NCBI GenBank assembly: GCA_029564595.1
Contig: JAKQPS010000113.1
Coordinates: 32,227 to 96,226 of the forward strand
From: a bacterium
GTDB taxonomy: Bacteria > UBP15 > UBA6099
Length of the DNA stretch: 64,000 nt
Direction of reading: 5' to 3'
Under the pieces are notes generated by a model, which was given only the letters and a program-made list of their open reading frames with translations, ran no database searches and had not been told where the DNA came from. Of the stretch, positions 17,123-37,084 are shown piece after piece. Made by a program: the position numbers and the translations under genes. Numbering within the stretch: position 1 is the first letter of the stretch; each line of letters starts with the position of its first letter.

Positions 17123-18076
17123 ATGGCATTCAAACAGGAAACGTATGACGTTGTGATAATAGGGTCAGGGCCGGCGGGTCTGACGTGCGCGCTATACTGC
17201 GCGCGGGCCGGACTGGGCGCGGTCATTCTGGACAGAGGCATGCAGGGCGGCCAGATGGCTATGACTGAATGGATAGACAACTATCCGGGTTTTCACGAAG
17301 GAGTGGAAGGCTCCAAGCTCGGCGAACTGATGTTCGAACACGCGCGGAGGTTCGGCGCCGAATCGACATACGCGACGGTCGAACGCATTGTCGGAAAAGA
17401 CTCCGATGGCATTTTGACTGTCGAGACGGACATGGGGCCGTTGAAAGCGAAGGCCGTTGTGGTAGCCACCGGCGCGGCTCCCGCAGAACTTGGCGCGCCC
17501 GGCGAGGCCGAACTTCGCGGCAGAGGCGTTTCGTACTGCGCTGTGTGCGACGGCAATTTTTTTAAGGGACAGGACGTGTGCGTGATCGGCGGCGGCGACG
17601 CCGCTGTCGAGGAGGCGGCCTACTTAGCGAAGCTCTGCCGAAAGGTTTACATCGTCCACAGAAGAGACAAACTGAGAGCGGCGAAAGCGGCTCAGGACGC
17701 CGCCGCGTCAAAAGACAATATTGAGTTCGCGCTGAACAGCATTCCGACAGCGATACTCGGCGACACTGAAGTGAAGGCTCTTCGAGTCAAAGACGCCGTT
17801 GCCGGCGAAGAGAGAGATTTGCCCTGCTCCGGCGTTTTTATTTATGTCGGAATTAAACCCGCCACGGATTTCGCGCGCGGCGCGCTTGATCTGGATGAAA
17901 ACGGATTCATAGTCACGGACAATGAAATGAGAACGAGCATGGATGGAGTGTACGCTGCTGGCGACGCCCGCAGGCCGAGAAACAGGCAGGTTGTAACAGC
18001 CTGCGCCGACGGAGCGACCGCCGCTCTGACTATCGAGCGGATACTCAACGAACAACCGGACAGATGGAGAAAATAA
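17123..18076 (+). CDS. trxB: Thioredoxin-disulfide reductase
   Basis: FAD motif VVIIGSGPAG, redox CAVC, NADPH motif VIGGGDAAVEEA. Confidence 0.9.
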   Translation: MAFKQETYDVVIIGSGPAGLTCALYCARAGLGAVILDRGMQGGQMAMTEWIDNYPGFHEGVEGSKLGELMFEHARRFGAESTYATVERIVGKDSDGILTVETDMGPLKAKAVVVATGAAPAELGAPGEAELRGRGVSYCAVCDGNFFKGQDVCVIGGGDAAVEEAAYLAKLCRKVYIVHRRDKLRAAKAAQDAAASKDNIEFALNSIPTAILGDTEVKALRVKDAVAGEERDLPCSGVFIYVGIKPATDFARGALDLDENGFIVTDNEMRTSMDGVYAAGDARRPRNRQVVTACADGATAALTIERILNEQPDRWRK

Positions 18077-18897
18077 TGAGCGGACTATATGACAGGATAC
18101 AGGCGGCGGTCAAGGCTGTAAGAGCGAAAACGGATTTCTCCGCGCCCACAGGGATAATACTCGGCACGGGTTTGGGCGCGATCGCAAAGGAAATCGATAT
18201 TGAAACTTCCATCCCTTATGAGGAAATTCCCGGATTCGCCAAACCCACCATATTCGCGCACGAAGGCAATTTGCTGTTCGGCAAGCTGAGCGGCAGGCCG
18301 GTCATAGCGATGCAGGGAAGGTTCCACCTTTACGAGGGTTTCACGCCGGATCAGGTCGCGTTTCCGGTCAGAGTCATCCGCGCGCTGGGCGCTGACACGC
18401 TGATAGTGTCCAACGCGGCGGGCGGATTGAGAAGATTTTTCCAACCCGCCGCTCTAATGATTATCGACGATCACATAAATATGATGGGAATTAACCCGCT
18501 CATCGGGCCGAACGATGAAAGGCTGGGACCGAGATTCCCCGACATGTCGGAACCGTACGACCGGGCGCTTGTCGCGCTCGCGGAAAAAATAGCCCTCGAA
18601 GAAGGCATAGACGCGCACAAAGGCGTTTACGTGTCGGTGACAGGCCCCAATCTTGAGACCGCCGCCGAATACCGCATGTTCATCAATATGGGGGCGGATG
18701 CCGTGGGAATGAGCACTGTTCCGGAGGTCATCGTCGCCAAGCACGCGGGAATGCGCGTTTTCGGCGTCTCGGTGATTACCGACATGTGCGTGCCGGATTG
18801 CCTTAAACCCGCGGACATCAAAGACATTATCAAATACGCCAATCAAGCTGAACCGAAACTGACGCGCCTCATATCTAAACTCGTCGCTTCGATATAA
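18076..18897 (+). CDS. Purine nucleoside phosphorylase (PunA/MTAP-type, trimeric family)
   Basis: TAATG overlap with trxB. PNP family I motifs (GMSTVPEV, VSVITD). Confidence 0.8.
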   Translation: MSGLYDRIQAAVKAVRAKTDFSAPTGIILGTGLGAIAKEIDIETSIPYEEIPGFAKPTIFAHEGNLLFGKLSGRPVIAMQGRFHLYEGFTPDQVAFPVRVIRALGADTLIVSNAAGGLRRFFQPAALMIIDDHINMMGINPLIGPNDERLGPRFPDMSEPYDRALVALAEKIALEEGIDAHKGVYVSVTGPNLETAAEYRMFINMGADAVGMSTVPEVIVAKHAGMRVFGVSVITDMCVPDCLKPADIKDIIKYANQAEPKLTRLISKLVASI

Positions 18898-19137
18898 ATC
18901 ATTAATAAATTGGTTTGTTGGATTTTGCGGTGAAACCATTTTTTTGCAAAAAACATGTTTCCCCGCGCCCCTTCCGAAAAAAACTCTTTGTCGCCGATTT
19001 TGTTGAACTTCGTTCTTTACAAAATCGTCTCATTTCATTGATATGCGAAAAAGATATAGTTTTATGCAAGACACACAAATGGGTGGGTAAAATCAATTAA
19101 GAACTGACATAAACAAAATTCTTCCGCGCGCGTTATG

Positions 19138-20181
19138 TCAGAGTATCTCTTTTTTCAGGAAACGCTGCAAATCCGCAATCAGACGAAAATTCAGCGCGAA
19201 AGTGTTAATGTGCCCGGTGGGATACACCCTCAGCCACGGCATTCCGCCCCATGCCGCGTCTGTCGCCTCGACTGTTTCCACGGGGACGAGATGATCGTAA
19301 CGTCCTGAAGCCATGAACATGTTTTTCACCGGAACTCGCGGCTTCATCCGCCTCAGACTCATGAGAGCGTGCGCCCTGTCGTCCGACAGCATCGTCAACT
19401 CCCCGGCTGCCTCTCTGCGCCGCCAGTCATCGGCGTAATCCCATTTCGCGAAAAGGTCCGCCATGTCCACAGGAGGCATACACATTATGGCGAAATCGGC
19501 GTTGCTCGCGTTGCACGCGTAAGCGCCTGACAGAACGCCGCCGAAGGAGACCCCGAACAACCCGACGCTCCCTGCCCCGTTCTCGTTCAACCAGTTTATG
19601 AAAACCTGAACATCCGCGAACGACTGCCTGAACGAAAGCAGCGTCCATCTCGTCTCCGGAGTCATCAAATACTGCCCGCTGAAAGAACCTTCCGGAGTGC
19701 GCCGTTGCGAATACGGAATGGTGACCATCGCCGTTTCAAAACCCCAAGACGCGAACCTGAGCGCCCACCATTCAAAATAGAAATCGAAAGCCGCGTCCAC
19801 GTGCAGTCCGTTCAGCATCACGATGACAGGCGCTCCCTTGCGTCCGTCCAGCCGGAAATGCTTAACATACACCGTGTTGTTCTCTGAAAAAACCGTCTCT
19901 ATCGGGCTTGGATAGCTCCCCTCCCAAACAGACACGAACGGAAGCTGGGATGATTTTCTGAACCGTATGTCAGGGACTGCATCGGAAGGAGCGAAGAAAA
20001 GAGCCGGGTCTCCTAGCTCCTCGTCCGTCAGCAGAGCGCTCACATCGTATCCGGTCACATCCGGAATCTCCGGAGTCGAAGTCAGTTTCCCCGCTATCGA
20101 AGCAATCAAGTCAAAAACATCCGTCACGGCCTTGTCGAAATCCATTATGATACGCTCCCGGCGGCCCCAACTGCGAGCCAA
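19138..20181 (-). CDS. Alpha/beta-hydrolase fold protein
   Basis: Nucleophile elbow GVSFGG, plus downstream Asp and His candidates. Alternative start at 20145. Confidence 0.6.
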   Translation of the reverse strand: MARSWGRRERIIMDFDKAVTDVFDLIASIAGKLTSTPEIPDVTGYDVSALLTDEELGDPALFFAPSDAVPDIRFRKSSQLPFVSVWEGSYPSPIETVFSENNTVYVKHFRLDGRKGAPVIVMLNGLHVDAAFDFYFEWWALRFASWGFETAMVTIPYSQRRTPEGSFSGQYLMTPETRWTLLSFRQSFADVQVFINWLNENGAGSVGLFGVSFGGVLSGAYACNASNADFAIMCMPPVDMADLFAKWDYADDWRRREAAGELTMLSDDRAHALMSLRRMKPRVPVKNMFMASGRYDHLVPVETVEATDAAWGGMPWLRVYPTGHINTFALNFRLIADLQRFLKKEIL

Positions 20182-20393
20182 GTGTCTTTAACGATGATTC
20201 TAGCAGAACACAGCCAAAATATGCCATCGGAGATTTGTATGACTGATAATCTATCATACTGAAGTATATGCACTGCTCACAGCGCGCAAGCAATGAGTAA
20301 GAACAATTGCGTTGAATTTGTATATTACTGTAACATGCGCTCAAAGCGTCTGATACAATATCTCAAGGCGGAAAACCGGGATATAATTTAGAT

Positions 20394-20630
20394 TTGCAGG
20401 AGGAACCCATGAGCGAAGAATCGAAAGTGTGCGATGTTCCGGGGAAGAGCAACCATGTTCGCCATCATAACCACGGCGGACAAGCAGTATACGGATTAGG
20501 ATTTATCGGCGCGGCGGTATACTTCATCGGCAATGCAACAACCTTCGGCTCCGGCGTCGTCGGTTTCCTAAAAGCCATCGTATGGCCCGCATTCCTCGTG
20601 TATGAAGCATTCAAAACATTGTACAATTAA
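20394..20630 (+). CDS. Small glycine-zipper membrane protein (GlsB/YeaQ-like?)
   Basis: 78 aa, two hydrophobic helices with GxxxG repeats (GLGFIGAAVYFIG...GSGVVGF). Confidence 0.35.
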   Translation: MQEEPMSEESKVCDVPGKSNHVRHHNHGGQAVYGLGFIGAAVYFIGNATTFGSGVVGFLKAIVWPAFLVYEAFKTLYN

Positions 20631-20666
20631 GCGTTGCACATCGTCGCAAAGATTCTTTCTTACTCA

Positions 20667-20808
20667 TCGTTATCCGTCCACTAATATGCACTATCGTTGC
20701 CAAGGTCGTTACTCATCATTGCCAAGACCGTTACTCATCGTTGCCCGCCCACTAATATCCACTATCGTTGCCAAGTCCGTTACACATCGTTGCCAAGGTC
20801 GTTATTCA
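20667..20808. repeat. 2 x 71 bp tandem repeat made of three 22-27 bp sub-repeats (TCGTTGCCAAGGTCGTTACTCA type), iteron-like
   Basis: Seen directly. Units at 20667, 20694, 20716, 20738, 20765, 20787. The overlapping ORF 20602..20994 simply translates the repeats. Confidence 0.8.
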
Positions 20809-20809
20809 T

Positions 20810-20901
20810 CGTTGCCAAGGTCTCCTTGGCAACGCAGAACCAATGACAATGAAAGCGGAGCTTCCGGCTCATCCGTTACCAAGGCAACCTTGGTAACGAT
20901 G
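20810..20901. repeat. Two REP-like palindromes (cgttgccaagg-tct-ccttggcaacg at 20810-20834; atccgttaccaagg-caa-ccttggtaacgatg at 20871-20901)
   Basis: Perfect 11-14 bp inverted arms around a 3-bp spacer. Confidence 0.8.
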
Positions 20902-20978
20902 AAAGAATTACTGTATTCTAGCATCAATCACGCATCCCCTGACAATTGCCGCATGCTAATAAGCGTTACCTTGTCATC

Positions 20979-22145
20979 TTACGAAGATGATTGATTGCGT
21001 TTTATCCATCCATATCCATGATTTTTGCTGATACTATTTGCGACATCCAGTATAATGCGTAAGTCTGTTGTAGGATAATTATTCATCAATTCTACGATTG
21101 GAACACATGTCTGCTTACTATCATCCGTGTTTAATATACTATCAGTAGAAACATCGATTGTATTCTGTTCATAATTTCTTAAAAACCAATTCTCCATTAC
21201 TAACCTCAACATTTGATTTTCAAACAGATATTTTATCCTATCATTTTTTGATATCGTATTATCCATCTTCAGCGCTTCTACGATTTTGCTTTGAGATTGG
21301 TCATCAAGTCCAACACTAGTGTGTTTTGTGATACCCCTAATAAAATATTCGTATGAGACAAAATGAATATCCTTGCCAGTTTCTGCTTTATACTCTTTAC
21401 GAAGTTCAGGTCTTGGACCGATTCTTTGTCCATTGATAAGTAGCCACCAGTCTTCTTTGTCATCTTGAGTGACAAATAATGTATGCTGGTTACGCTTACC
21501 CATTTCATTTATTGTTTGTTTCCAAATTAAGAAATCTCCATATTTATTTTCTCCTTCTTTATTATTGTCACAATAACCGGGCGGCGTTTTTTTAGAATAT
21601 CTACCATCTGCTTCTTTAAACAAATCTCTCAAATCATCGTCATTGAAATGTTGTCCGATACGACCTCGCATAATGCATATTATCCTGTCCAAATAAGGGT
21701 CTTTGTATCTTGATATAGGATATTTTTCAATGTCATCCTTAATTCTTTTTTTAGCTTCAGATAACACCTTCTCTATGTTTTTGTTTAACTCATCCCATTG
21801 TATTACCGAATTTGATCCTTGAGATCCATCAATACTGTTGATAATGTTTTTTAATACTACATCGATATCGTTAAAATATTTGCTAACTTTCTTTGCTTCC
21901 GTTATTTGATCGTCTATTAATTTAATCCGGGCATCGAAAAACTCCTTTGCAACCTGATGTGGCACCCATATCCTTCCTAATATCTTCTCGTTTTCAATTG
22001 TTTTTATAAGACCTTCCCTTTCTTTTGTTTGAAGCCGATAAATATTTAAGTAAATATTCGTATCAAATATTATAGTTCCATTGTTCCAAATATCTTTTAA
22101 CTCATCTTCTGAAAGCGGCCACAAATGCTTAAACTGGTCAGGCAT
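20979..22145 (-). CDS. PIN-like nuclease-domain protein (388 aa) on an AT-rich cassette
   Basis: N-terminal PIN-like acidic motifs (IIFDTNIYLN, YGDFLIWKQ, FVTQDDKEDWW). Gene GC about 33% against about 60% in the flanks. Confidence 0.55.
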   Translation of the reverse strand: MPDQFKHLWPLSEDELKDIWNNGTIIFDTNIYLNIYRLQTKEREGLIKTIENEKILGRIWVPHQVAKEFFDARIKLIDDQITEAKKVSKYFNDIDVVLKNIINSIDGSQGSNSVIQWDELNKNIEKVLSEAKKRIKDDIEKYPISRYKDPYLDRIICIMRGRIGQHFNDDDLRDLFKEADGRYSKKTPPGYCDNNKEGENKYGDFLIWKQTINEMGKRNQHTLFVTQDDKEDWWLLINGQRIGPRPELRKEYKAETGKDIHFVSYEYFIRGITKHTSVGLDDQSQSKIVEALKMDNTISKNDRIKYLFENQMLRLVMENWFLRNYEQNTIDVSTDSILNTDDSKQTCVPIVELMNNYPTTDLRIILDVANSISKNHGYGWIKRNQSSS

Positions 22146-22325
22146 AAATCACCGTATTCTTAAAATTATTGCATATCTCAAAACACACTCTGTGACGACT
22201 AATATAATATATTAAATCTAATTGTCAGTAAATACAACAAGCAACATGATAAGATCGAATAGCAACATAAGAATTCGTCTCTATTCACTCGATTCGCATC
22301 TATTACAGCAGAGCCATGTTTACTC

Positions 22326-22355
22326 ATCGTTACCAAGGTGACCTTGGTAACGATG
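22326..22355. repeat. REP-like palindrome catcgttaccaagg-tga-ccttggtaacgatg (partner of the 20871-20901 copy)
   Basis: Perfect 14-bp arms. Closes the AT-rich cassette. Confidence 0.8.
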
Positions 22356-22439
22356 AAAATATTGTGTCGTTCATTGTGGCGGGTTCACGCTCCCGTGCGT
22401 GGCTTTCAAACCCGGTGCGGGCGCGCGAAATAAAAGAAA

Positions 22440-22490
22440 ATGGGGACAATCAGCGCGGTTTTTCGCGATGGGTGTCCCCTTTTTTCGGTT
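22440..22490 (-). terminator. Intrinsic terminator after the GRE operon (hairpin ggggaca..tgtcccc with U-runs on both sides)
   Basis: Stem-loop followed by T-runs in both orientations. Lies 30 nt downstream of the ACAD stop. Confidence 0.55.
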
Positions 22491-22519
22491 CTGTTATAAC
22501 TGCTCGCTGCCGATTCAGT

Positions 22520-23719
22520 TCACAGCAGGGCCATGCCTTTGATGGTCATTATCTCGTTTGTGGCGTCCATGATTTGCAGCAGTTTTGCGTCTCGCATGTA
22601 TTTCTCCAAGTTGTATTCTTTGGAGATGCCGTAACCGCCGAGTATCTGGACCATTTCAACGGTGTGCTTCATTGCAAGGTTGGTGGCAAAGACGCGGGCG
22701 GCGGCGGAAAGCTTGAGGTCGCCCATGAATTTGTTGGCGAGCGTCCAAGAGGCTTTCCAGAGGAGTCCGCGCGCGGCTTCTATCGCCTGATACGCCTCGA
22801 ACAGCCTGAAGCCTATTGCCTGATGCTGGAATATCGGTTTGCCGAACTGCACTCGCTCTTTGGCGTACTGCAACGCTTCTTCATACGCGGCGCGCATCAG
22901 CCCGACAGCCAGATATCCGACGCCGATGTTGCCGACTGTCTTTATCGCGTTGTGGATGGTGGGATAGCCGTCTCCGGGCGGCATTATCATGTTGCCCTCC
23001 GGGATGCGCGCGCCGTCGAAGCACACTTCGCCCTGATTCAACGCTCTCATGCCCAGCTTGTCCATGGATTTGCCGCGTTCGACGCCCTGCCCCAGCGGAA
23101 CAAGAAAAACGCCTGAACCTTTTATCCCCTTCGACGGGTCCACGCAGGCGAACACGAGGAACAGGTCGGCTATGCTGCCGTTGCTGACGAAGCTGGATTT
23201 TGCTCCGGTGATGACGTATTCGGAGCCTTCTTTTTTCGCGGATGTTTCGTGATGGACGCACGGGTCGTAGTAATTGCTGCCGTCCGAGCCGATGTTGCCT
23301 TCGGAGCTGCCCCATGCGGATATGTGCTCGGCTTTGGTGTCATCGCAGTAAGGAACGACATGTTTTTCGATGAGTTCTTTTTTGCCGCCGGCAAGAACGC
23401 TGAGGAACGCGGGGGCGACCATTCCGGCGAGCAGAGTGGCGGGAATGCCCACGCCGCCGACAGCGAGTTCTTCCCAGACCAGCGCGGTGCTAAGCGGGTC
23501 AAGCCCAAGCCCGCCGTGCTGGACGTTTATCGTCATCTTATGGAATCCCAACTCGTAAGCCTGCCTTAAAGTGTTCCTGAATTCAGGGCTGGCGTATGCC
23601 TCGTCCGGATTCTGCATTTTATCTATGGCAAGCTCGGCGGGCCTTATCACCTCGCGGGCGAACTTCTTTGCCATCTTCTGCAACTCAAGCTGTTCCTGCG
23701 TCGGTTTGAAATCAATCAT
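22520..23719 (-). CDS. Acyl-CoA dehydrogenase family protein
   Basis: ACAD fold throughout (C-terminal helical domain, conserved catalytic region). 4-nt overlap with the upstream gene. Confidence 0.85.
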   Translation of the reverse strand: MIDFKPTQEQLELQKMAKKFAREVIRPAELAIDKMQNPDEAYASPEFRNTLRQAYELGFHKMTINVQHGGLGLDPLSTALVWEELAVGGVGIPATLLAGMVAPAFLSVLAGGKKELIEKHVVPYCDDTKAEHISAWGSSEGNIGSDGSNYYDPCVHHETSAKKEGSEYVITGAKSSFVSNGSIADLFLVFACVDPSKGIKGSGVFLVPLGQGVERGKSMDKLGMRALNQGEVCFDGARIPEGNMIMPPGDGYPTIHNAIKTVGNIGVGYLAVGLMRAAYEEALQYAKERVQFGKPIFQHQAIGFRLFEAYQAIEAARGLLWKASWTLANKFMGDLKLSAAARVFATNLAMKHTVEMVQILGGYGISKEYNLEKYMRDAKLLQIMDATNEIMTIKGMALL

Positions 23720-24486
23720 TTCTCGAACCCCCAGTCAGTTCTTGCGAACGAGTAAGGAAGGAAAGCGTCCGGGTCGGCCTCGCCGACGACTTCGCCGGGA
23801 TGCATGATGGTGTCGCTTGTGAAGAAATATGCCGCCACCGGGCGCTTGCAGACGATTTCGCTCCAAGAGTCGTGCGCGGAAGGCTCGAATGTGATTTTGC
23901 CCATGCCCATCTCGAAAGAATGATAGACGATTTCCGTCCGCTGCCTGACGAGAAGAATCGGGCCGTCGAAGCCGGGTTTGAGGTCGGCGCGGGGCATGAA
24001 CTTGAAGAGGAAACTGGGGCCGACTTTGAGTGGCGGCTCGGCCATTTTGACAGCCAGTTCAGCCCTGATGGTCGCGAATCTAACACCTCTGCGCTCGACG
24101 GTTCCTTCGACAACTTTGTCTTCGCGGTTCAGAGTTATCTTCGCGGTTTTCTTCGGGAATCCGTAGATTTCCCGTCCGTTGAAAATCCGGTCGTCGTCGC
24201 CGTCGAGGGGCATGGACAGGCAGTAGTTGCCGACCTCGCCTTTATATTGGCACCTGATGAAAAGAGCGCACTCCCTGTATCCCGGCCCGAGGTTCGTGTC
24301 CGGAAAGTTCGAGATATAGGAAAGCGCCCACGGCTCGGCCGCAGGCTCCAATGGAGGCGGCAGAAGTTTCGCTATCACATCCGCTTCCGTCTCGTACATG
24401 ATGCCGAGCATCTGCGCCCCGTCGAACCTTCGTGTTGCGAATCCATAATAATTTTCAATTTCCTCTTTGCTTCTGATGAACCCCAT
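23716..24486 (-). CDS. Acetoacetate decarboxylase (ADC)-family protein
   Basis: 256 aa, ADC-like fold. Start chosen at MGFIRSKEE because of a strong GAGGAGG Shine-Dalgarno. The longer ORF in the track is a GC-rich extension. Confidence 0.7.
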   Translation of the reverse strand: MGFIRSKEEIENYYGFATRRFDGAQMLGIMYETEADVIAKLLPPPLEPAAEPWALSYISNFPDTNLGPGYRECALFIRCQYKGEVGNYCLSMPLDGDDDRIFNGREIYGFPKKTAKITLNREDKVVEGTVERRGVRFATIRAELAVKMAEPPLKVGPSFLFKFMPRADLKPGFDGPILLVRQRTEIVYHSFEMGMGKITFEPSAHDSWSEIVCKRPVAAYFFTSDTIMHPGEVVGEADPDAFLPYSFARTDWGFEK

Positions 24487-24563
24487 TTCCCAACCTCCTC
24501 TTAGTGTTTGAGCCGTCCGCTCGAAGCTTTCTACAGCCGTTCGCGTCCGGATTTTATTTGCTT

Positions 24564-27137
24564 TTAGGCGATATACTGCTCTGTGCGGGCTATCACCTCG
24601 TCCTGAATCTCCCTGCCGAGTTCGGTGAAATAAGCGCTGTATCCGCCGACTTTCACTATCAGGTCGCGGTGCGCGTCCGGGTCTTGCTGGGCTTCGCGCA
24701 TGGTTTCGGAAGACACGACGGTGGGCTGCAACTGAGCGCCGCCCATCTTGAAATATGCGCGTATGAGCGCGGCCCATTTCTTCCTCGCTTCTTGCGTTCC
24801 GCCGACGGCGGAGGGATGAAACTTCATGTTCACCGCCGCGCCTAGTATCTGCGTAAAATCAAGCGAGGCGACCGACCGCATAGCCGCAGTCACGCCATTC
24901 TTTTCGACGTTGTATGGATTGCAGCTCGCGGCGTACGGGGTCGCTGCGCGGCGTCCGTCGGGCGTGGCTATGGACAGCCTGCCGTCTATCGTGTGAGTGG
25001 TCATGCTTATCACGTACGGGACGAAGACACCGCCCCGGCTGGTCTTGTATTTGTAAGTTTCATCGAACATCGCGTTTGTCACCCGCCGCGCCAACTCGTC
25101 TGTCTCCGCGAAACCGTTCCCCCATTTTCCTTCAATTCCGGCTATCTCGCGCCGAAGGTCCTCGAGTCCGGCATAGTTCACGTTTATCGCCTCGATTATT
25201 TCGCGGAGCGCGAACTTGCGTTTTTCGAAAACGAGTTTTTTTATCACTAGAAGAGAGTCGGAAACGTTGGCGATGCTGTTAATGAAGGAAATGCCGCTGA
25301 GGTCGTACAGAGCGCCGCCGTTGACGACATCCCTGCCCTTTTCCGCGCATCCCTGCATGAACGCCGAGATCAGAGGAGCGGGAAGCATGTCGGCGAAGAC
25401 ATCGTCCTTGATATTCGACGCGTCGGCGATGAGTTTTATCTGATGCCGCGCCTGCTTGAGAAAAGCATCCTCGAAACTCTCGTAAGAGTCGAACGATTCA
25501 GGCTCGCCGGTCTTGAGTCCGACGTTTTTGATAAGGCCCATCATGGTGAGCGAGTTGCCGTTGCGCAAAGTTAGGTCGAGCAGCCGGGAAAGAAGAAGAG
25601 CCGAGGCGCTCATGCCGCCGGTCTTGCCCGGACACAGCATCTCGACGCAGCCCATCACGGCGTAGTCGCGGGCGTCAGCGTCGGAAAAACCGTGCCGCCG
25701 CATCGACTCGACATTGATATCGTCGTTGAAAAGAGAAATATTCGAGCCGCCCGTGAAAACCGCTTCCGCCGCCGCCGGAAGCAAGTCTTCAGGAGAATCC
25801 TTGTGCACGCGGAGAGAAACGTTGGTCACCGCTTTGGCTCTCGCGGCCGCTTCCAAGAACAGATAAGTCAATTCGTTTGTGCCGTCCGTCCCATCGGGTT
25901 TCACCCCGCCCACTGTGACAGGCGATGAACCGAGGAACCGGTGATAGAAATTGCTCAGCATGTTCGATTCCGGGCGTATGTTCTGGGACATTGTTTTGAG
26001 CAAAAGCTCTTCGAGCGCCGCGCGCGCTTCCTCCCGCGTTATTACTCCGGCCTCGATGTCTTTTTTGTAATAAGGATAAAATATCTGATCCATCCTGCCG
26101 AAGCTGTGGAGGTTGACCGGATGAGCAAGCTCCACCGCCGTCTTGACCGTCCACGCCGCTTGAACAGCCTGCATGAAAGTCTCCGACGGCATCAAGGGAG
26201 CGGTTTTGCAGTTTTCCAATGCGGCGCGAAGAGCGACTCTGCATTCCGGGACAAGTTCGTCTTCGAGCGCGGCTTTAACGGCGTCTGCCAGCCTGCGCGC
26301 GAAAACAATGGCGCCGTCTAGAGCCATTTCAACAGAGCGGTGAAAAGCCCGCGTTTCATCGTCCGCCGCAGCCGCGATCCTTTGCGCGGCCTCTTCCTTC
26401 ATCTTTAAAAGCCCTTTTTTTACTACCGTGTCGAAATCAATTATCACGTGCCCCTGATAAGAGGATATCGTCGAGCAGATCGACACCATCATAGTCTGCC
26501 GGGAGGTGATAGTTGGCAGCGCGAGACTGAATTCCCGCATGTCGTCGCCGAGCAGACCTGACGACATCAACCGACGGTCTACCTCTTCGACGACCGTTTT
26601 TCCCTCCCAGAACGGAAGAAGCTCGTTTACAAGAACTTTCCTGTCTTCCGGATCAATCACATATCTATTTATCTCGCGCTCGTCCATCGTTTTTATTTCA
26701 AGGTTCATGGGCTGCTGCCCGGCGGCGCGGGACGCTTTCATGTTTCGCGCGAAATCCCGCAGACCGCGTTTGCCGACAAGATACGAAAGAGCGCCGCCTA
26801 GAGACTTGAATCTGAATCTCATTATCGATCCGCGCGCAAGCTCGGTTTTAAAAACCCCGTTGAACACTCCCCGCTCAATGTCGATTGGGATGCCCATGAA
26901 ATCTTCCGTCCAGTATCCCGCGATGAGGTCTTCCGGCTCGACATGCATGTCCATGTTTTCATACACGTTCTTCATAGCGAGAGCCACGCGCTCGCCTGCG
27001 GTCAGTCCGGAGCCTTCCGTCTTCCTCCAGCTTTCGGTGTAATATTTCGCGCGCTGGATTGAAATCTTCGGAGTCTCCAGAATATACCTGTCGCGCAACT
27101 CGGCAATCCGGTTTTTGTTTTTCTCAAGAGTCAGCAT
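24564..27137 (-). CDS. Glycyl radical enzyme, PFL2/glycerol-dehydratase family
   Basis: N-terminus resembles CutC/GDH/HypD-type enzymes (RAKYYTESWRKTEG). Active-site Cys in MGCVEML. C-terminal glycyl-radical motif VKVGGYSAYF. Confidence 0.9.
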   Translation of the reverse strand: MLTLEKNKNRIAELRDRYILETPKISIQRAKYYTESWRKTEGSGLTAGERVALAMKNVYENMDMHVEPEDLIAGYWTEDFMGIPIDIERGVFNGVFKTELARGSIMRFRFKSLGGALSYLVGKRGLRDFARNMKASRAAGQQPMNLEIKTMDEREINRYVIDPEDRKVLVNELLPFWEGKTVVEEVDRRLMSSGLLGDDMREFSLALPTITSRQTMMVSICSTISSYQGHVIIDFDTVVKKGLLKMKEEAAQRIAAAADDETRAFHRSVEMALDGAIVFARRLADAVKAALEDELVPECRVALRAALENCKTAPLMPSETFMQAVQAAWTVKTAVELAHPVNLHSFGRMDQIFYPYYKKDIEAGVITREEARAALEELLLKTMSQNIRPESNMLSNFYHRFLGSSPVTVGGVKPDGTDGTNELTYLFLEAAARAKAVTNVSLRVHKDSPEDLLPAAAEAVFTGGSNISLFNDDINVESMRRHGFSDADARDYAVMGCVEMLCPGKTGGMSASALLLSRLLDLTLRNGNSLTMMGLIKNVGLKTGEPESFDSYESFEDAFLKQARHQIKLIADASNIKDDVFADMLPAPLISAFMQGCAEKGRDVVNGGALYDLSGISFINSIANVSDSLLVIKKLVFEKRKFALREIIEAINVNYAGLEDLRREIAGIEGKWGNGFAETDELARRVTNAMFDETYKYKTSRGGVFVPYVISMTTHTIDGRLSIATPDGRRAATPYAASCNPYNVEKNGVTAAMRSVASLDFTQILGAAVNMKFHPSAVGGTQEARKKWAALIRAYFKMGGAQLQPTVVSSETMREAQQDPDAHRDLIVKVGGYSAYFTELGREIQDEVIARTEQYIA

Positions 27138-27164
27138 CGTTAGTCTCCCTCGCGCGGTCGCGCT

Positions 27165-27839
27165 TCAACCGTCCAGAACCGACGCGTCGGCAAACTTGTC
27201 CAGCATTGCGTCGACCACCATCCTGACATGCTCCCTGCGTTCGGCCAGCGCGCTTTTAGCCAGAGGATCGCCCTTCCACAGCAACTCAAGCGCGGGCGCG
27301 TATGTGTAGTAATTTATCGCCAACCCGAACAGAGTGACGAAAAAATGTCTGGGCGCGACAGCCCCGCCGCCGGGCAGCAAAGCCCCGAACGCGACCTCTC
27401 CCCACCTCTGCAACGGCTCCATGTATTGCGCTATTTTCTCCAAACTCTGCGACCTAGAACATATCTCTCTCTGAATAAGCCGCGCGTAACCGGGATTCAA
27501 CTCCACGAAATCCAGATACGCTTCCATTCCGGCGTGAACCTTCTGCCTCGCAGTCCCTCCCGCGGTCAATGCGCCTATCAATGCCTGCGCCTGCGACTTG
27601 TAGTAAACGTCCAACACGTTGTCAAACAGGTTCTTTTTGCTTTCGAAATAATAGAACACAAGAGCTTTCGCGACTCCCGCCTTCTCCGCAATGTCGTTAA
27701 CGCTCACTCCGTCGTGTCCGCGCTCTATAAACAACTCTTCCGCCGCCCTGAAAATCTTTTCTCTTGCGTCCGGCTCGGACACCTTCGCTTCATTTTCGGT
27801 GACGACGTCTTTTTTCGTTAGTGTGTTCATCTTAATCAC
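27165..27839 (-). CDS. TetR/AcrR-family transcriptional regulator
   Basis: HTH region GHDGVSVNDIAEKAGVAKALVFYYF. GTG start at 27839, or ATG at 27830. Confidence 0.85.
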   Translation of the reverse strand: MIKMNTLTKKDVVTENEAKVSEPDAREKIFRAAEELFIERGHDGVSVNDIAEKAGVAKALVFYYFESKKNLFDNVLDVYYKSQAQALIGALTAGGTARQKVHAGMEAYLDFVELNPGYARLIQREICSRSQSLEKIAQYMEPLQRWGEVAFGALLPGGGAVAPRHFFVTLFGLAINYYTYAPALELLWKGDPLAKSALAERREHVRMVVDAMLDKFADASVLDG

Positions 27840-27878
27840 CGCCGAAACAGTCGGAGCGCATAATTATTTGCGAACATC

Positions 27879-27924
27879 TTGACCGAATGGTCAACTCCTG
27901 TCATTATGTTAACCGAGCGGTCAA
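27879..27924. promoter_or_regulatory. Two tandem palindromic operator candidates: TTGACCgaatGGTCAA and TTAACCgagcGGTCAA
   Basis: Perfect and near-perfect 6-4-6 inverted repeats in the divergent promoter region between the TetR and SDR genes. Confidence 0.5.
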
Positions 27925-28015
27925 AGACTGTCAAGACATATCGCCGAATTTAACCTAACCTTTCGCAAATGCTGGAAATAACAAGGTTAGATCGGCGGCA
28001 GGGAGGATGAATAAT

Positions 28016-29032
28016 ATGAAAGCGCTTGTCACTGGAGCAGACGGGCTTCTTGGAGGCAACCTAGTCCGGGAAATGATAGAAAGAGGAATCGAAGCGCGGG
28101 CGATAGTGCATCCGAAAAGCCTGTCTCGCACTCTCGACGGTCTTCCGATAGAGCGAATAACCGGAGACATCCTTGACGCCGGAGAGTTGGCAGAAGCGGC
28201 AAAGGGATGCGACGCGGTGTTCCATGTCGCGGCGTCCACCGCTCTCTGGCCGCCCAAGTCTCCCATAATCACCGCCGTGAATGTGGAAGGCACGCGGAAT
28301 ATGCTGGACGCGGCGGTCAAAGCGGGCGTGAAGAGGTTCGTCCATGTCGGTTCCGCCAGTTCGTTCGGGTATGGAACCAAAGAGCGGCCCGGAGACGAGT
28401 CGACTCCTTTTAAATACGCTGATTTCGGTCTAGCCTATTTTGATTCCAAGCTGGAAGCTCAAAGAATCGCGTTGAAGCACGCCGCCGACGGCAAGCTGGA
28501 CGTTGTGGTGGTGAATCCGACATTTATGATAGGCCCGTTCGATTCCGGCCCCAGTTCAGGGAAAATGATTTCTAAATTCGCCGAAATGAGGCCGCCGTTC
28601 TACCCGCCGGGAGGCCGCAACTTCATACACGCGCGAGACGCGGCAAAAGGAATGCTTGCGGCGTGCGAGCGAGGACGGACCGGGGAATGTTACCTTCTGG
28701 GCAACAGGAATATGGATATGAAGGAATTTTTCAGCGAGGTCGCGCGCGTGGCGGGCTTCAAGCCGCCCGCGCTTGAGATTCCCAAAGAGATAATGATGAT
28801 TGCCGGGGCCGCCGGATCGGCTATTAGCAACATAACCGGAAAGCAGCCTGAACTATCCTATGAAATGGCCCGCAGTTCGTGTGTCGGCGCGTATTATAGC
28901 GCCGCGAAGGCGGTCAGAGAGCTTGCCCTGCCGCAGACGCCGATAGAGACGGCGGTGGAGGAAGCGTACGAATGGCTCGCCGAAAACGGGCACATCAAGA
29001 GCGCGCGAGGTCGCGCCGGAAAGAGGCGATGA
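28016..29032 (+). CDS. NAD(P)-dependent epimerase/dehydratase-family oxidoreductase (extended SDR)
   Basis: Rossmann motif VTGADGLLGGNL. Catalytic Y..K region. Confidence 0.75.
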   Translation: MKALVTGADGLLGGNLVREMIERGIEARAIVHPKSLSRTLDGLPIERITGDILDAGELAEAAKGCDAVFHVAASTALWPPKSPIITAVNVEGTRNMLDAAVKAGVKRFVHVGSASSFGYGTKERPGDESTPFKYADFGLAYFDSKLEAQRIALKHAADGKLDVVVVNPTFMIGPFDSGPSSGKMISKFAEMRPPFYPPGGRNFIHARDAAKGMLAACERGRTGECYLLGNRNMDMKEFFSEVARVAGFKPPALEIPKEIMMIAGAAGSAISNITGKQPELSYEMARSSCVGAYYSAAKAVRELALPQTPIETAVEEAYEWLAENGHIKSARGRAGKRR

Positions 29033-29850
29033 GCATGGCCGCTAAACATTTCGAGAACAAGACCGCTCTCATAACCGGGGGCAGCCGGGGGATAGGGCTT
29101 GCGGTGGCGCGCGAACTGTCGCGCAGAGGCGCCCGCTGCGCCATCGCCGCGCGCGGAGCCGAACGGCTCGAACGCGCCCGCGCCTCTCTCGCCTCAGACG
29201 GTTTCGACGTCCTCACTATTCAAGCAGACGTCGCGGACGCTGCGTCTTGCGCCGACATGGTCTCTCGCGCAGTCGCGGAGTTCGGGCGTCTGGACATCCT
29301 TGTAAACAACGCGGGCGTATCTATGCGCGCCAACCTCGAAGACCTCGACGCCGAAGCCTGCCGCTCGATGGTGGACATCAATCTGATGGGGTGCATATAT
29401 CCGACGCTCAGCGCGCTCGATCAACTGAAGAACAACAAAGGCAGTGTCGTCTTCACGTCCAGCATAGCGGGTCTGATAGGGCTGCCGACGGCGACGATAT
29501 ATTGCGCGACCAAGCACGCGCTTCGCGGATTCGCGGACGCGTTGAGGTGCGAGATCGGGCCGGACGGCGCGCATGTCGGCGTCGTCTATGTCGGGTTCAC
29601 TGAAAACGACCCTGAGAAGAAAGTGGTCAGCGCGGACGGAGGAGCCGTCCCGCCCGGCCCGGCGCACATGACACAGGAGCAAGTGGCGCGCGAGTTCGCC
29701 GAGCTAATCCGCCACCGGCGCTCCCGCGCCGTGCTTTCGCCAATCGGCAAATTGGCCGAGCTTGCCGGAAGGCTGTCTCCGGACATCGTCGGCGAAGCCA
29801 TCGTCTTCAGCCGCAAAACCAAACTCAACGAGCGCCTCGGCATATCCTGA
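29029..29850 (+). CDS. Classical short-chain dehydrogenase/reductase
   Basis: TGGSRGIGLAVA, NNAG, YCATK motifs. ATGA overlap with the upstream gene. Confidence 0.8.
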   Translation: MSMAAKHFENKTALITGGSRGIGLAVARELSRRGARCAIAARGAERLERARASLASDGFDVLTIQADVADAASCADMVSRAVAEFGRLDILVNNAGVSMRANLEDLDAEACRSMVDINLMGCIYPTLSALDQLKNNKGSVVFTSSIAGLIGLPTATIYCATKHALRGFADALRCEIGPDGAHVGVVYVGFTENDPEKKVVSADGGAVPPGPAHMTQEQVAREFAELIRHRRSRAVLSPIGKLAELAGRLSPDIVGEAIVFSRKTKLNERLGIS

Positions 29851-29950
29851 GATTTATGTTGCGCTGAAGCAATAATGCGCCGCTCATGGGCGCGGCTGAT
29901 GTTAGCAGGTAAAACGGTTGCCGCTTTCGCGGGAATGACGGCAATAAATA

Positions 29951-30133
29951 AACCCGAATCCGTCATTAGGATTCGGGAGCGATTGTTTAGAGCGGATGAA
30001 ATGCTAGGCGCAAGGCGCATTTTTGCAGTGAATAGAACTTATTGTTCATGAACAAAAAAATGTGGCGGCAACGAAGCAGTTCGCCGCTATGAAAATCGCC
30101 CCGGTTCGTCGGCTCTATCGACGAATCCGGGAT
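29951..30133 (-). repeat. Copy C (short variant, reverse orientation) of the structured intergenic repeat family
   Basis: The reverse complement aligns with the 5' and 3' modules of copies A and B (cccggattcgtcgatagagccgacgaaccggggcgattttcatagcggcgaac...; ...aatgcgcc..catccgctctaaacaatcgct..gaatcctaatgacggattcggg). Confidence 0.75.
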
Positions 30134-30216
30134 AAATGTTGCTTTTTTCTCTCTTGGCAGTATTCGGTTTAACGCGCAGTTTGAAATAATCCAGCGAAAT
30201 CAATGCCGTTTCATTA

Positions 30217-31125
30217 TTAACGTTCATCGAAACGGATTATCGTTTCCATCCCGTTGTGATCGCTAATCAGTCGTCCCGAAACCAACTCGTCGAACACCCA
30301 CCGCGCTGATTCTATGGTTATTTTCCAGTCCGACCCGTTCTCGTCGTAGAAAAGATGGTCCACATGGTCGAGATGAGCGCTGGCCATTTTTAGTTTTGAA
30401 TTCTGAAGGAGCCAATCGCAATCCTCTTCACCGGGATTGCAGTTGAAATCGCCGTGGATGATAACCGGCCGCCGCGTACCGCCTGAAAACCTCTCGACCG
30501 CCGCCATCATCTGCTTATAGTTCTCGATTCTCGGCTTGGGACCGAATCCCGCCTGCGCGTGCAGCGTGTAAATGTCTATCTCCAGCCCGCCGGGCAGAAC
30601 CGTGGTCGCGCCGAGAAATCCTTTATGGCTGAAAGCGTCAACTCCGAACTGCTCTTTCCATCTCTCGAAAACCGACCTCTGTATTTCGCCTTTTGAGAAA
30701 ATGTACAATCCGCTTCCTGTCGGGGACGTCGGCGAGCCTGTCCCCATGGCCACGAAATGGTTTTTCAGCCTGCGCGGAAAAACCTCTCTCTCCGGAATGA
30801 ACGCTTCCTGCAGCCCTATGACATCATAGTCTTTGATGAGCTTGGCGATGAGCGTGGCCCTTTTTTCCGTCGGAACCAGCAGGTTGCGGTCAAATGTTAT
30901 GAAATCCGGGAGCATACAGACGTTGTACGTCAGGAATTTCAAAGTGTGAGATTTCTTCGGCGACTGTTCCGCTGTTTCAGACGCCGACGCCGTCAACGGA
31001 ACCAAAACCGCCATTGCCGTAAAAACAGCGGAAACAATCAAAGCGATGCCATGTCTTTTCAGATTGGAGTTCAAGAGTCGGCAACCATCCTTTTCAACCA
31101 TGCGCTTCGGCGATGGCGATTTCAT
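30217..31125 (-). CDS. Secreted endonuclease/exonuclease/phosphatase (EEP)-family protein (sphingomyelinase-like)
   Basis: Signal peptide. EEP motifs YNVCMLP, GLQE, IIHGDFN, SDHNG. Confidence 0.65.
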   Translation of the reverse strand: MKSPSPKRMVEKDGCRLLNSNLKRHGIALIVSAVFTAMAVLVPLTASASETAEQSPKKSHTLKFLTYNVCMLPDFITFDRNLLVPTEKRATLIAKLIKDYDVIGLQEAFIPEREVFPRRLKNHFVAMGTGSPTSPTGSGLYIFSKGEIQRSVFERWKEQFGVDAFSHKGFLGATTVLPGGLEIDIYTLHAQAGFGPKPRIENYKQMMAAVERFSGGTRRPVIIHGDFNCNPGEEDCDWLLQNSKLKMASAHLDHVDHLFYDENGSDWKITIESARWVFDELVSGRLISDHNGMETIIRFDER

Positions 31126-31137
31126 TGTTAAGAGCGA

Positions 31138-32334
31138 TTATTTGAAAACTTTTACAATAATGCCCAAGGCCTCTTCTATCTGGTCTTTCGTAATTATAAG
31201 AGGCGGAGCGAATCTGATGATGTCGGGCCGGGCGTCTTTGGCCAGCAGCCCGGCGTCGAGCAACTCAAGCGATTTGTCATGAGCGACAGGTTTTTCAAGA
31301 ACCACGCCGACAAGCAGTCCTTTGCCACGAACCAGAGAAACGCCGGGAAGCTTAAGCTCCCGAAGGCGGGACATGAAAAATTCTCCCATAATCGCGGAGT
31401 TCTCGACCATTTTTTCATCCCGCAGCGCGTCCATCGCGGCTATCGCAACAGCGGCGGCGAGAGGGTTGCCGCCGAACGTGCTTCCATGCGTGCCATGAGT
31501 GAAAACGCTCATCACGTTCTCGTTCGCGCAGACTGCGGACACCGGAAGAACGCCTCCGCCCAGAGCTTTTCCGAGCGTGACTATGTCGGGCCGGATTCCG
31601 TAATGCTCGAAGCAGAACATTTTTCCCGTGCGCCCGAGCCCGGTCTGAATCTCGTCTAGGCACAAAAGAACGTTGCGCCTGTCGCAAATCTCCCGTACGC
31701 GGGCCAGATAGTCGTCTGGAGGGACCACCACCCCGCCCTCTCCCTGTATCGGCTCAAGCAGAACGCCCGCCGTGTCCTCGGTAATAGCGGCCTCAAGAGC
31801 GGCGGCGTCCCCGAACGGGACGATGTCGATTCCGGGAAGAAGCGGGCCGAAGCTTTTCTTAGTCGTATCGCTGGTGGACATGCTGATGGCGGCTATGGTG
31901 CGGCCGTGAAAGTTGTTGGCGGCGGCGATAATTCCAGCGCGGCCGTCGGGGACGCCCTTGATTTCGTGCGCCCATTTGCGCATCGCCTTAAGCGCCGTCT
32001 CGACCGCTTCCGCCCCAGTGTTCATGGGCAACGCCTTCTCGAACCCCGTCAGCGCGCACAATTTTTCGAGGAACGGCCCAAGCATGTCATTGTGAAACGC
32101 CCTAGATGTGAGGGTCGCCCGCCCGGCCTGCTCTATCAGCGCCTTAACTATTTTAGGATGCCTGTGCCCGTGGCTCATCGCAGAGTACGCGCTCAGCATG
32201 TCCATATACCTGCGCCCCTCCGGATCCCACACGTATACGCCTTCGCCTTTCGATATGCACACCGGGAGTGGCTCATAGTTTCGCGCGCACCACTTATCCG
32301 CAAGCTTCATCAGTCTTTCGCTTTCGCTGCCCAT
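31138..32334 (-). CDS. Ornithine/acetylornithine aminotransferase (class III PLP)
   Basis: Class-III aminotransferase signatures (LCLDEIQTGLGRTGK, TLGKALGGG). Closest in feel to ornithine-oxoacid transaminase. Confidence 0.8.
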   Translation of the reverse strand: MGSESERLMKLADKWCARNYEPLPVCISKGEGVYVWDPEGRRYMDMLSAYSAMSHGHRHPKIVKALIEQAGRATLTSRAFHNDMLGPFLEKLCALTGFEKALPMNTGAEAVETALKAMRKWAHEIKGVPDGRAGIIAAANNFHGRTIAAISMSTSDTTKKSFGPLLPGIDIVPFGDAAALEAAITEDTAGVLLEPIQGEGGVVVPPDDYLARVREICDRRNVLLCLDEIQTGLGRTGKMFCFEHYGIRPDIVTLGKALGGGVLPVSAVCANENVMSVFTHGTHGSTFGGNPLAAAVAIAAMDALRDEKMVENSAIMGEFFMSRLRELKLPGVSLVRGKGLLVGVVLEKPVAHDKSLELLDAGLLAKDARPDIIRFAPPLIITKDQIEEALGIIVKVFK

Positions 32335-33816: not shown

Positions 33817-34041
33817 CAGCGCCGGTATCCGCGATTCGATTGTTCGAACCTGACTCGAACGCAAAACAAGCCCTATCAGGCAAGCATGTAAATGCAAAGT
33901 ATGTTATAACTCATCAGGCCATCGGCAAGCCCAATTCTCAACCGCAAAAACAATCTGAATTCCTGTTTCTCATATATAGTTCCCAAATGGTATGATCAAT
34001 CAACATGATATAGTAAAATATGAAATGAGAAACAATTGATT

Positions 34042-34491
34042 ATGAAAGATGACTTTGACATAAGTTTTCATATTCTTACTCAAATATCTGACGATTTTCA
34101 ACTTGAATATGAATTGTATTTTTGGCATTTGCAATATATTCACCTCAAAAAACATATTGGTTGCAAAGAACAGTATTTTGAATGCCGTTGCGGTTACGAT
34201 TCTTTGAAAGATCTTCTAAATGAGCTTTTCGACGATATGAATACTGATTTCAACACTTTCTTGTCATCACAAAAAGAAGTTCGCATTCTCGACGGTTTGT
34301 CAGAAGTTTTTGAAGACGCGCTCTCAGCATATGATTGGATGCAACTATTATACAAAGATGGGAAATGGAGAATTTCAAGTTTTTATAACATTGAAAAATA
34401 CAATAATAGTCAGATGAAAAATATGTCTACTAACTGGGATTTATCATTAAAAACCCTCTTGAGCAATTTGCCTTCTTTCGATGACATATGA
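34042..34491 (+). CDS. Hypothetical protein on AT-rich islet (about 33% GC)
   Basis: 150-aa ORF, acidic and Trp/Tyr-rich, no motif recognised. Confidence 0.45.
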   Translation: MKDDFDISFHILTQISDDFQLEYELYFWHLQYIHLKKHIGCKEQYFECRCGYDSLKDLLNELFDDMNTDFNTFLSSQKEVRILDGLSEVFEDALSAYDWMQLLYKDGKWRISSFYNIEKYNNSQMKNMSTNWDLSLKTLLSNLPSFDDI

Positions 34492-34679
34492 CCTTTCCTC
34501 ACAAAAGATTAAATCATTATTCAAACCACTCTAACCTCAACCGATATATTTGTTGTTTTGTCCGTTTCTGTGTTTTCATTTCTGCAACTATAAGATTCAT
34601 CATTGTGCGCGGTGATCGTTCTGGTTTTTGCGGGCTATGAAATTTGATTTTGGAAACAGTAATATAATGATGATTTCTA

Positions 34680-35269: not shown

Positions 35270-35532
35270 AATTTATCACCTCATAATGGCATTATACAAC
35301 GCAAGTCCCGATGAAGCAAAAGCATTACATTTTCTGCAGAGATATCATCCTTCCGCTCCCTATGCTTAGACATAATCGATTTGTTATTGTCTTTGGTGAG
35401 AGGCTGAGGCAATCGGCGAAGCAGACGCGCGCGGAGGGACGACTAACAGAAAAGCTTCGCGACTGTTCGGTCGCGAAGCTTTTTGATAGATTGCGCTATG
35501 TCAATGTTTGCGTTTTGCCGGGCGATGCTCGG

Positions 35533-37083: not shown

Positions 37084-37084
37084 G

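Follow-up and report, generated by a model that had tools for sequence, protein, structure and literature searches.

Repetitive extragenic palindromic (REP) sequences, integron cassettes, pdif modules and mobile insertion cassettes (MICs) are the described systems closest to the locus reported here, an AT-rich cassette with one gene, encoding a protein of the PIN_8 family, that lies at a short palindrome in a 64,000-nucleotide stretch of bacterial DNA (hereafter the window; contig JAKQPS010000113.1, positions 32,227 to 96,226; lineage UBP15, UBA6099). In integrons, the attC site spans 57-141 bp as an imperfect inverted repeat and is built from R''/L''-L'/R' boxes, a GTTRRRY core and extrahelical bases. 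The pdif (Xer) modules of Acinetobacter plasmids hold one or a few genes between short, partly palindromic sites and depend on a host recombinase acting in trans, and MICs carry passenger genes between repeat ends without a transposase. REP hairpins are preferred targets of the insertion sequences IS1397 and IS621. Few unexplained features of bacterial genomes are as common as REP-type repeats, which are usually viewed as markers of old, stable DNA. REPs and their paired form, the REPIN, occur together with a REP-associated tyrosine transposase, RAYT (Bertels and Rainey 2011, PMC3116915; PMC3337134), and in Pseudomonas the members of REP pairs are spaced 60-70 bp apart and foreign islands are REP deserts (PMC3390384).

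An earlier note on the window had described the cassette as a recently gained defence gene moved through a REP-like site, and the underlying observation is confirmed. Windowed GC falls to 0.31-0.35 over ~21000-22350, as low as the note had it, against flanks of 0.52-0.60; the window mean is 0.53, below the roughly 60% that it gave for the chromosome. The 388-aa open reading frame (ORF) at 20979..22145 (minus strand) is indeed the only long one in the AT-rich stretch, with 75 bp of non-coding DNA downstream and about 180 bp upstream inside the cassette and no second ORF. Palindromes do occur at both cassette ends, with cores at 20874-20898 and 22328-22352, but a cassette simply set between two copies is only part of the layout: the second palindrome of a REPIN-like doublet harbours the cassette, whose insertion adds one palindrome. 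The note had not included the third palindrome (core 20810-20834), an array of half-sites at 20660-20816 or the dispersal of the palindrome across the lineage. The inverted repeat CGTTRCCAAGG-NNN-CCTTGGYAACG (pattern CGTTRCCAAGGNNNCCTTGGYAACG) matches three times in the 64-kb window and not once in 100 shuffles. Pfam calls on contig L001, which covers window positions 17430-32145, include no integrase or transposase, as the note had remarked of the DNA alongside the gene.

Relatives hold the same site in two further states. To the right of the cassette, window 22328-29850 shares 93-95% identity with the corresponding flank of bacterium UBP15_UBA6099 (hereafter UBA6099) and of UBA6099-like metagenome contigs. 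When doublets are typed by their spacers, the one at window 20810, one in UBA6099 (L030_343) and one in the bin ADurb.Bin236 (L023_7442) are mutual nearest neighbours at 85-87%, and they are therefore a single orthologous doublet, which we call alpha. Its second palindrome (palindrome B) directly abuts the conserved flank ATGATAAATATGCGTTGTTCATTGTGGCGGGTTCACGC on the acyl-CoA dehydrogenase side in ADurb.Bin236, which represents the empty state. The same flank is reached in the window after 1454 bp (20899..22352), which comprise the PIN cassette with an additional palindrome; in UBA6099 and the UBA6099-like metagenome contigs 1478 bp separate alpha palindrome B from it. The UBA6099 insert is also an AT-rich cassette with one gene, whose product combines a transmembrane segment with a prokaryotic YEATS domain (TM-pYEATS; PF20305, E=4e-13) and which is read opposite to the PIN gene relative to the shared flank. 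This insert also brings a second doublet, of a "beta" subtype whose closest relative lies elsewhere in ADurb.Bin236 (L040, 87%). Both cassettes start within about 2 nt of one position, right after CCTTGGTAACGATGA of the orthologous palindrome. From these alignments, two unrelated integrase-less cassettes appear to have entered the same palindrome independently, each adding one copy of the site.

The DNA of the cassette is foreign and was gained recently, and integration targeted to the palindrome is the best-supported reading of these three states. Relatives with flanks of 93-95% identity lack the cassette and its protein matches no housekeeping family, so that neither of the two findings that the note named as arguments against recent gain of a defence gene applies. 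The relatives offer both an empty site, of the kind that the earlier note had suggested seeking in close genomes, and an alternative cassette at the same palindrome; the note's proposals of recent foreign gain and of mobilization through a REP-like site both gain from the comparison. The right-junction palindrome (22323..22357, loop TGA) has the 5' flank TTTACTCAT that is typical of palindrome A and of genomic copies together with the A/T stem variant typical of palindrome B, and its 3' flank runs on into conserved chromosomal sequence ATGAAAATATTGTGTCGTTCATTG. Because that 5' flank is of the genomic type, the cassette may have been linked to a palindrome before it arrived. Further low-GC segments with a single ORF are bounded by palindromes in UBA6099, namely L018 576-2028 (307-aa ORF) and L037 4663-6414 (446-aa ORF), and the orthologue of the L037 site in ADurb.Bin236 (L020) has a single palindrome.

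Independent ENA and JGI assemblies (L001, L003, L004; 99.99-100% identity) reproduce both junctions in identical layout, which makes mis-assembly unlikely. The right junction is confirmed by a Logan contig (L002/L005) as well, whose end falls at the first palindrome (window 20809); contig L010 ends at window 20835; and L137 and L138 each consist of a cassette by itself with palindrome halves at its ends. Assembly breaks coincide with the palindromes, as is usual for assemblers at repeats. All contigs with identical flanking proteins carry the cassette, and no cassette-free site was seen among them within the strain.

The resident alpha doublet begins with palindrome A (20805..20839, core 20810-20834, loop TCT). 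A spacer of 39 nt follows (20835-20873; central part 20840..20868) with its own hairpin, GAAAGC-gga-GCTTCC, at 20851-20865; it shares 85% identity with the spacers of L030_343 and L023_7442. Palindrome B (20869..20903, core 20874-20898, loop CAA) forms the left junction of the insertion. The doublet is abutted on its left by the tandem half-palindrome array (20660..20816), in which a 22-nt unit ATCGTTGCCAAGGnCGTTACTC is repeated 5.6 times and nested in a 71-nt unit repeated 2.2 times. As single-stranded DNA the right-junction palindrome can form 15 pairs at -15.9 kcal/mol (z=-8.2). An Rfam scan of the whole window matched no family. A role of the palindromes as terminators was rejected, as they have no T-run and the neighbouring acyl-CoA dehydrogenase gene (22520..23719, minus strand) has a conserved terminator-like hairpin, GGGGACA...TGTCCCC followed by T6, at 22442..22485; with this hairpin of its own between gene and palindrome, the palindromes lie outside the transcription unit of the dehydrogenase. 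The PIN gene is preceded, ~55 nt upstream of its start codon, by a promoter-like site (22201..22228, minus strand; CTGACA, 16 nt, TATATT) that agrees with the consensus at 10 of 12 positions; it is a consensus match only, and such sites are no commoner in the region than in shuffles.

A scan of one genome per species found the palindrome in 30 genome loci, all of them from metagenome-assembled genomes (MAGs). They belong to UBA6099 and to the unclassified "bacterium" bins ADurb.Bin236 and USCA_metabat.19, with one locus in an Omnitrophota-labelled and one in a Hydrogenedentales-labelled bin. Together with the window these loci contain 68 copies when up to three mismatches are allowed. The palindrome is absent from the viral contigs of IMG/VR. 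It is also missing from genomes with an acyl-CoA dehydrogenase ~70% identical to that of the window; a metagenome scan with this dehydrogenase reached only relatives of at most 72% identity, which lack the palindrome and are uninformative on the empty site. A usual doublet reads (t)TACTCAT-CGTTGCCAAGG-TCT-CCTTGGCAACG, then ~39 nt with GAAAGC-gga-GCTTTC, then CGTTACCAAGG-AGA-CCTTGGTAACG-ATGA, and the 18 doublets have start-to-start spacings of 57-69 nt. Since the loop TCT is the complement of AGA, the two palindromes of a doublet are inverted copies of one unit. A doublet can fold as two hairpins or as one long hairpin, with energies of -28 to -33 kcal/mol (z -7.4 to -9.5). The symmetry of the stem is kept, as at pair 10-26 (GC 38, AU 21, GU 1), and eight pairs have changes on both sides compared with 4.9 +/- 0.5 in shuffles.

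The palindrome, which the earlier note had called REP-like, is a dispersed, lineage-specific REP/REPIN-like repeat. Like REPs, it is a short extragenic palindrome present in many copies in one lineage and missing from distant relatives and viral contigs, and like REPINs it forms inverted doublets of fixed spacing, usually 57-68 nt, that can fold into a long hairpin. The genes beside it are mostly housekeeping genes. Differences from REP/REPIN elements concern its surroundings and its insertion products. Low-GC DNA (a 500-bp flank below 45% GC) adjoins 17 of the 35 elements for which both flanks were available (49%), compared with 20% of positions drawn at random from these loci; in Pseudomonas, by contrast, REPs mark old core regions. 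One recent doublet insertion, in UBA6099 (L014 1673-1859), is flanked by a perfect 38-bp direct target duplication TTTCCAAATGACTTGCATGGGACGTCGGGAGAGAAGCG within the loop of a terminator-like hairpin; the orthologous site in ADurb.Bin236 (L031 about 7050-7100) is empty, and a duplication of this kind is not made by HUH transposition. Target duplications made by transposases are far shorter than 38 bp. A long target duplication as a general feature of doublets was rejected, since only L014 (38 bp) and L024 (14 bp) have one.

Doublets also coincide with changes in gene order. The synteny breaks between the window and ADurb.Bin236 are located at doublets (L023, L040), and the far-left flank of the UBA6099-type locus is found inverted beside the beta doublet in ADurb.Bin236, so that the repeats are sites of rearrangement as well. 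Head-to-tail arrays of the left arm and the palindrome 5' flank, comparable to the array next to alpha, occur at L012 ~1745-1791, L021 ~741-800, L026 ~7755-7781 and L017 ~7573-7620, and a degenerate orthologous array is present in UBA6099 (L030 260-343). These half-site arrays could be scars of repeated one-sided recombination, products of slippage or an array of protein-binding sites. Neither they nor the 38-bp duplication at L014 fit any known enzyme.

In the mechanism that we propose, the mobile unit would consist of a cassette and one palindrome. One crossover joining the palindrome of a donor circle to resident palindrome B would place a palindrome on each side of the cassette, and the reverse reaction would release an excised circle and leave an empty doublet. 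The junction of such a circle would read ...GCCATGTTTACTCAT-CGTTACCAAGG-NNN-CCTTGGTAACG-ATGAAAGAATTACTG.... Because the palindromic site is symmetric, cassettes could be taken up in either orientation. The enzyme would be encoded outside the cassette, either as a host recombinase or transposase that acts on hairpins in trans or as RecA working on about 30-100 bp of repeat homology. Taken as a whole, from recent foreign origin through palindrome-targeted integration to a conflict effector as the cargo, this account seems to us evenly poised between being right and being wrong.

Several observations weigh against it. A non-exhaustive survey of ~300 kb around the 68 palindromes (Pfam and PHROG overviews of 83 neighbouring ORFs, limited to the 25 top families, and a scan for an HUH..Y motif, all in incomplete MAGs) turned up no integrase, transposase gene or HUH-type motif and nothing like a RAYT, the Y1 HUH transposase whose gene REPs usually flank. 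We infer mobility solely from end states, as each cassette was met at one site and circular junctions were not observed. On its left side the alpha locus is rearranged in ADurb.Bin236, and the UBA6099 contigs, which were retrieved through the pYEATS protein, all end in the repeat on that side; the "empty" state could for these reasons be a secondary deletion. The L037/L020 comparison is not a clean insertion, as the sequence to the left of the palindrome differs too, up to the stop codon of the upstream gene. Finally, the window has an AT-rich islet at 33817-35530 without a palindrome, and foreign DNA therefore also arrives by other routes.

The same observations lend some credit to an alternative in which the association with palindromes is incidental. 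The DNA between the 73-aa gene and the dehydrogenase gene would be a common hotspot of transfer where alleles differing in cargo are exchanged by homologous recombination in the conserved flanking genes, and the palindromes would be passive REP-like residents of dispensable intergenic DNA, or insulators, without a role in integration. The absence of a recombinase, the palindrome-free islet and the extent of the L037/L020 difference would all follow readily, and most palindromes indeed stand between housekeeping genes without a cassette. What counts against this explanation is the precision of the alpha site: at one orthologous palindrome the starts of two cassettes are no more than about 2 nt apart, and a third genome has that palindrome joined to the flank. 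Moreover, each insertion adds a copy of the palindrome or doublet, which replacement through flanking homology does not predict, and the enrichment of palindromes by low-GC DNA is the opposite of the situation in Pseudomonas (PMC3390384). We consider an incidental association unlikely.

A broader form of palindrome-targeted integration would make the doublets attachment sites of an undescribed, integron-like system of cassette capture in a candidate phylum, in which symmetric REPIN-like sites spread over the chromosome receive circular units of one gene and one hairpin by means of a host enzyme in trans. The half-site arrays and the 38-bp duplication would then be footprints of that enzyme. 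This generalization is doubtful at present. If it were true, single accessory or defence genes would find a distributed landing platform in the REP-type repeats. The clean comparison of three states (empty, cassette A and cassette B) presents such a repeat as an entry point for foreign single genes without a recombinase, and, if general, this would explain how integrase-less accessory genes, candidate immunity genes among them, spread in uncultivable lineages and would connect REPIN biology with integron-like gene capture.

The protein carried by the window cassette belongs to Pfam family PIN_8 (PF18476). Residues 25-248 match 226 of the 227 profile positions with 188.3 bits against a cut-off of 26.1 (E=2.6e-55), a second, weaker Pfam match is to PIN_12/DUF4935, and the motifs FDTN, GDFLIW and QDDKEDWW, from which the earlier note had read a PIN-like nuclease domain, are all present. 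All 31 homologues in an alignment keep D28, N30, E68, D204, D232 and the family motif R182...PPGY, and D228 and E231 are at least 90% conserved. An AlphaFold model (pLDDT 83) has a PIN core split by long helices at 63-106 and 117-141. Profile score, acidic metal-binding residues and PIN fold all agree in placing the protein in PIN_8, which belongs to the VapC structural group with the annotation "function unknown" (Matelska et al. 2017, PMC5499597). It shares with PIN_8, DUF4935/PIN_12 and VapC proteins the fold, the complete acidic site, the structural group and a long helical insertion after strand 2, and with DUF4935 the encoding as a single gene (PMC5499597). It differs from VapC in being three times larger and in having no antitoxin gene, as no small gene adjoins it in the non-coding DNA of the cassette. 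The sequence predicts a metal-dependent nuclease, most likely an RNase given the affiliation with the VapC group.

The C-terminal ~70 residues (about 317-385) align with the C-termini of the homologues P0002, P0018 and P0027 (hhalign probability 92%, E 5e-7), of which P0018 and P0027 score above the Pfam threshold for HEPN_RES_NTD1 (PF18870) and P0002 just below it. The window protein itself has no direct PF18870 match at E<=10 and lacks the conserved PYDS-EGGY-GGPY segment. It forms a 50%-identity cluster of its own. We interpret this region as a putative degenerate or diverged HEPN/RES-NTD1-like domain that probably senses or regulates; together with the helical insertion it would control the nuclease. 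Matches to homologues seldom pass residue ~300, which indicates that C-termini vary across the family. The nearest relative is 34-40% identical (40% over residues 1-302), and 7392 clusters at 50% identity reach E<=1e-3. As a solitary, divergent member the protein offers a test case for a group whose more than 7000 clusters have no known function and whose members are frequent in prophages. Foldseek comparisons with the PDB and BFVD gave nothing significant, and a sequence search of the PDB gave nothing.

Relatives of the protein are common in viruses. PHROG 9788 matches it at E=3e-64, a relative is the last gene of the Clostridium phage phiCp-A genome, and 168 IMG/VR contigs encode relatives, whose neighbours are most often integrases, followed by regulators or repressors, portal proteins, sigma factors or late activators, and HNH endonucleases. 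This neighbourhood is where prophages keep their accessory genes. It is plausible that the protein is a solitary, one-gene conflict effector that acts in phage exclusion or abortive infection, as accessory genes of prophages do. The intact active site, the missing antitoxin gene, the promoter-like region of the cassette, the accessory-type positions in prophages and the variable C-termini are circumstantial points in favour of such a role, and the alternative cassette at the same site likewise encodes a domain described from conflict systems.

Defence or abortive infection in the form in which the earlier note had stated it is not supported by database matches. At E<=1 the protein matches none of the families of PADLOC-DB 2.0 (library from 2023), NCBIfam has no match either, and the published annotation of PIN_8 offers no function (PMC5499597). 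The two other palindrome-bounded cassette proteins are without a defence signature and without any Pfam or PADLOC match. No useful literature was found on PF18476, on PIN_8 in defence or on pYEATS. A defence role is plausible, and these points weigh against it as part of the whole account. The lack of a PADLOC match and the family annotation would suit a protein with no immunity role at all, such as an addiction-type toxin, or a nuclease that a phage used for its own purposes (degrading host or competitor nucleic acid) and that was stranded here as cargo, and the gene is common in both prophages and predicted viruses. An addiction system would be expected to show an antitoxin gene nearby, and none adjoins this one. 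The position of relatives in prophages, beside the integrase or at the genome end, combined with variable C-termini fits the usual pattern of accessory conflict genes, a point that is no more than suggestive. We regard a function of the non-defensive kind as improbable.

Could the PIN protein instead be the mobilizing enzyme, cutting the hairpin or cruciform of the palindrome and homing its own gene into palindrome copies? The position of the gene coincides exactly with a hairpin site, the structure-specific DNA nucleases of the FEN/5'-nuclease group are part of the PIN-like superfamily, and UBA6099 has a small ORF weakly matching PIN_12 next to a doublet (L019 2765-3286). PIN_8 itself, however, falls in the VapC group and not in the FEN group (PMC5499597). 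The other palindrome-bounded cassettes (pYEATS, L018 and L037) encode no PIN protein, the palindrome has spread through genomes that lack this gene, whose nearest homologue is only 34-40% identical, and the 168 viral contigs with PIN_8 relatives contain not one copy of it. Homing by the PIN protein is accordingly very improbable.

Functionally the locus resembles an integron cassette, but it is not one. One gene and one hairpin site make up the unit, the site is duplicated, no recombinase is carried in the cassette, and different cassettes occupy the same place in close relatives. The site itself is unlike attC, being a perfect palindrome of 25-31 bp with a 3-nt loop, and its GTTGCCA and GTTACCA do not fit GTTRRRY. 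Unlike integron cassette arrays, the sites lie scattered over the chromosome, either orientation occurs, and the cassette is equipped with a promoter-like region; there is no attI, and no IntI integrase was found in window 17430-32145. That the palindromes are attC sites of an integrase-less cluster (CALIN, a cluster of attC sites lacking integron-integrases) is barely credible in spite of the shared topology of cassette, single gene and duplicated hairpin site, given that attC boxes, extrahelical bases and core are all missing, the two cassettes at the site are oppositely oriented, most palindrome copies are solitary in core intergenic DNA, and contig L001, which extends 3.5 kb to the left and 10 kb to the right of the gene, has no integrase.

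Two other systems resemble the locus in part. The pdif modules are likewise small, bounded by short palindromic sites and without a recombinase on the module. Their dif sites have arms of 11 bp around a centre of 6-8 bp, in contrast to arms of 11-15 bp and a 3-nt centre here; the present locus is chromosomal and from an unrelated phylum, and an involvement of Xer would be hypothetical. MICs and the insertion sequences that target REPs differ in that the empty site already has a doublet and the insertion adds one palindrome, rather than placing a composite element in a naive target, and no insertion sequence is present at this locus.

The cassette is preceded by a gene for a 73-aa small hydrophobic protein without a Pfam match (20409..20630, plus strand). 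On its other side the acyl-CoA dehydrogenase gene is the synteny anchor with relatives, and the conserved right flank beyond it (window 23716-29850) encodes a TetR regulator, a glycyl-radical enzyme (PFL-like), an acetoacetate-decarboxylase-family protein and an acyl-CoA dehydrogenase, then an epimerase and a short-chain dehydrogenase. Synteny with the UBA6099-like contigs L135 (9805-11392) and L136 (9743-11330) ends at window 29850, at the end of the short-chain dehydrogenase gene. Beyond this point the two contigs have a DUF4276 protein and an AAA_15/AAA_21 ATPase, and the window has Exo_endo_phos and aminotransferase genes. Window 29850-30217 is a further variable spot.

The palindrome-free islet at 33817-35530 has a GC content of 0.36 over 34001-35000. 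It includes a 151-aa ORF (34036-34491, plus strand) with a weak PADLOC match only, a gene that by eye resembles PemK/MazF-type toxins (34680-35048, minus strand) and a small ORF upstream of the latter (35045-35269, minus strand). Both flanks of the islet are synteny breakpoints in ADurb.Bin236, where they are accompanied by palindrome doublets (L023, L040).

Some other settings of the doublets are worth recording. In UBA6099 a ~306-bp unit that contains a doublet occurs in tandem (L019 3592-4308), and it is single in ADurb.Bin236 (L022 7162-7559); the low-GC genes on its two sides differ between the two genomes and comprise the small ORF with the weak PIN_12 match and a DUF4747-like ORF. Next to the beta doublet of ADurb.Bin236 (L040 4166-4906) lie an IS4-like transposase fragment (DUF4372 and DDE_Tnp_1) and low-GC DNA, at a rearrangement junction of window blocks 50378-53619 and 35426-38005. 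A 47-nt "motif X" seemingly common to the end of the PIN cassette (20921-20968) and L030 130-180 was dropped, as blastn-short did not support it. A second dispersed hairpin family, CCCGAATCC-NNCATTA-GGATTCGGG, is present at window 29953-29977 and 39189-39213 and in L011, L018, L021, L034 and L035, and at the loci outside the window it often directly adjoins the first family.

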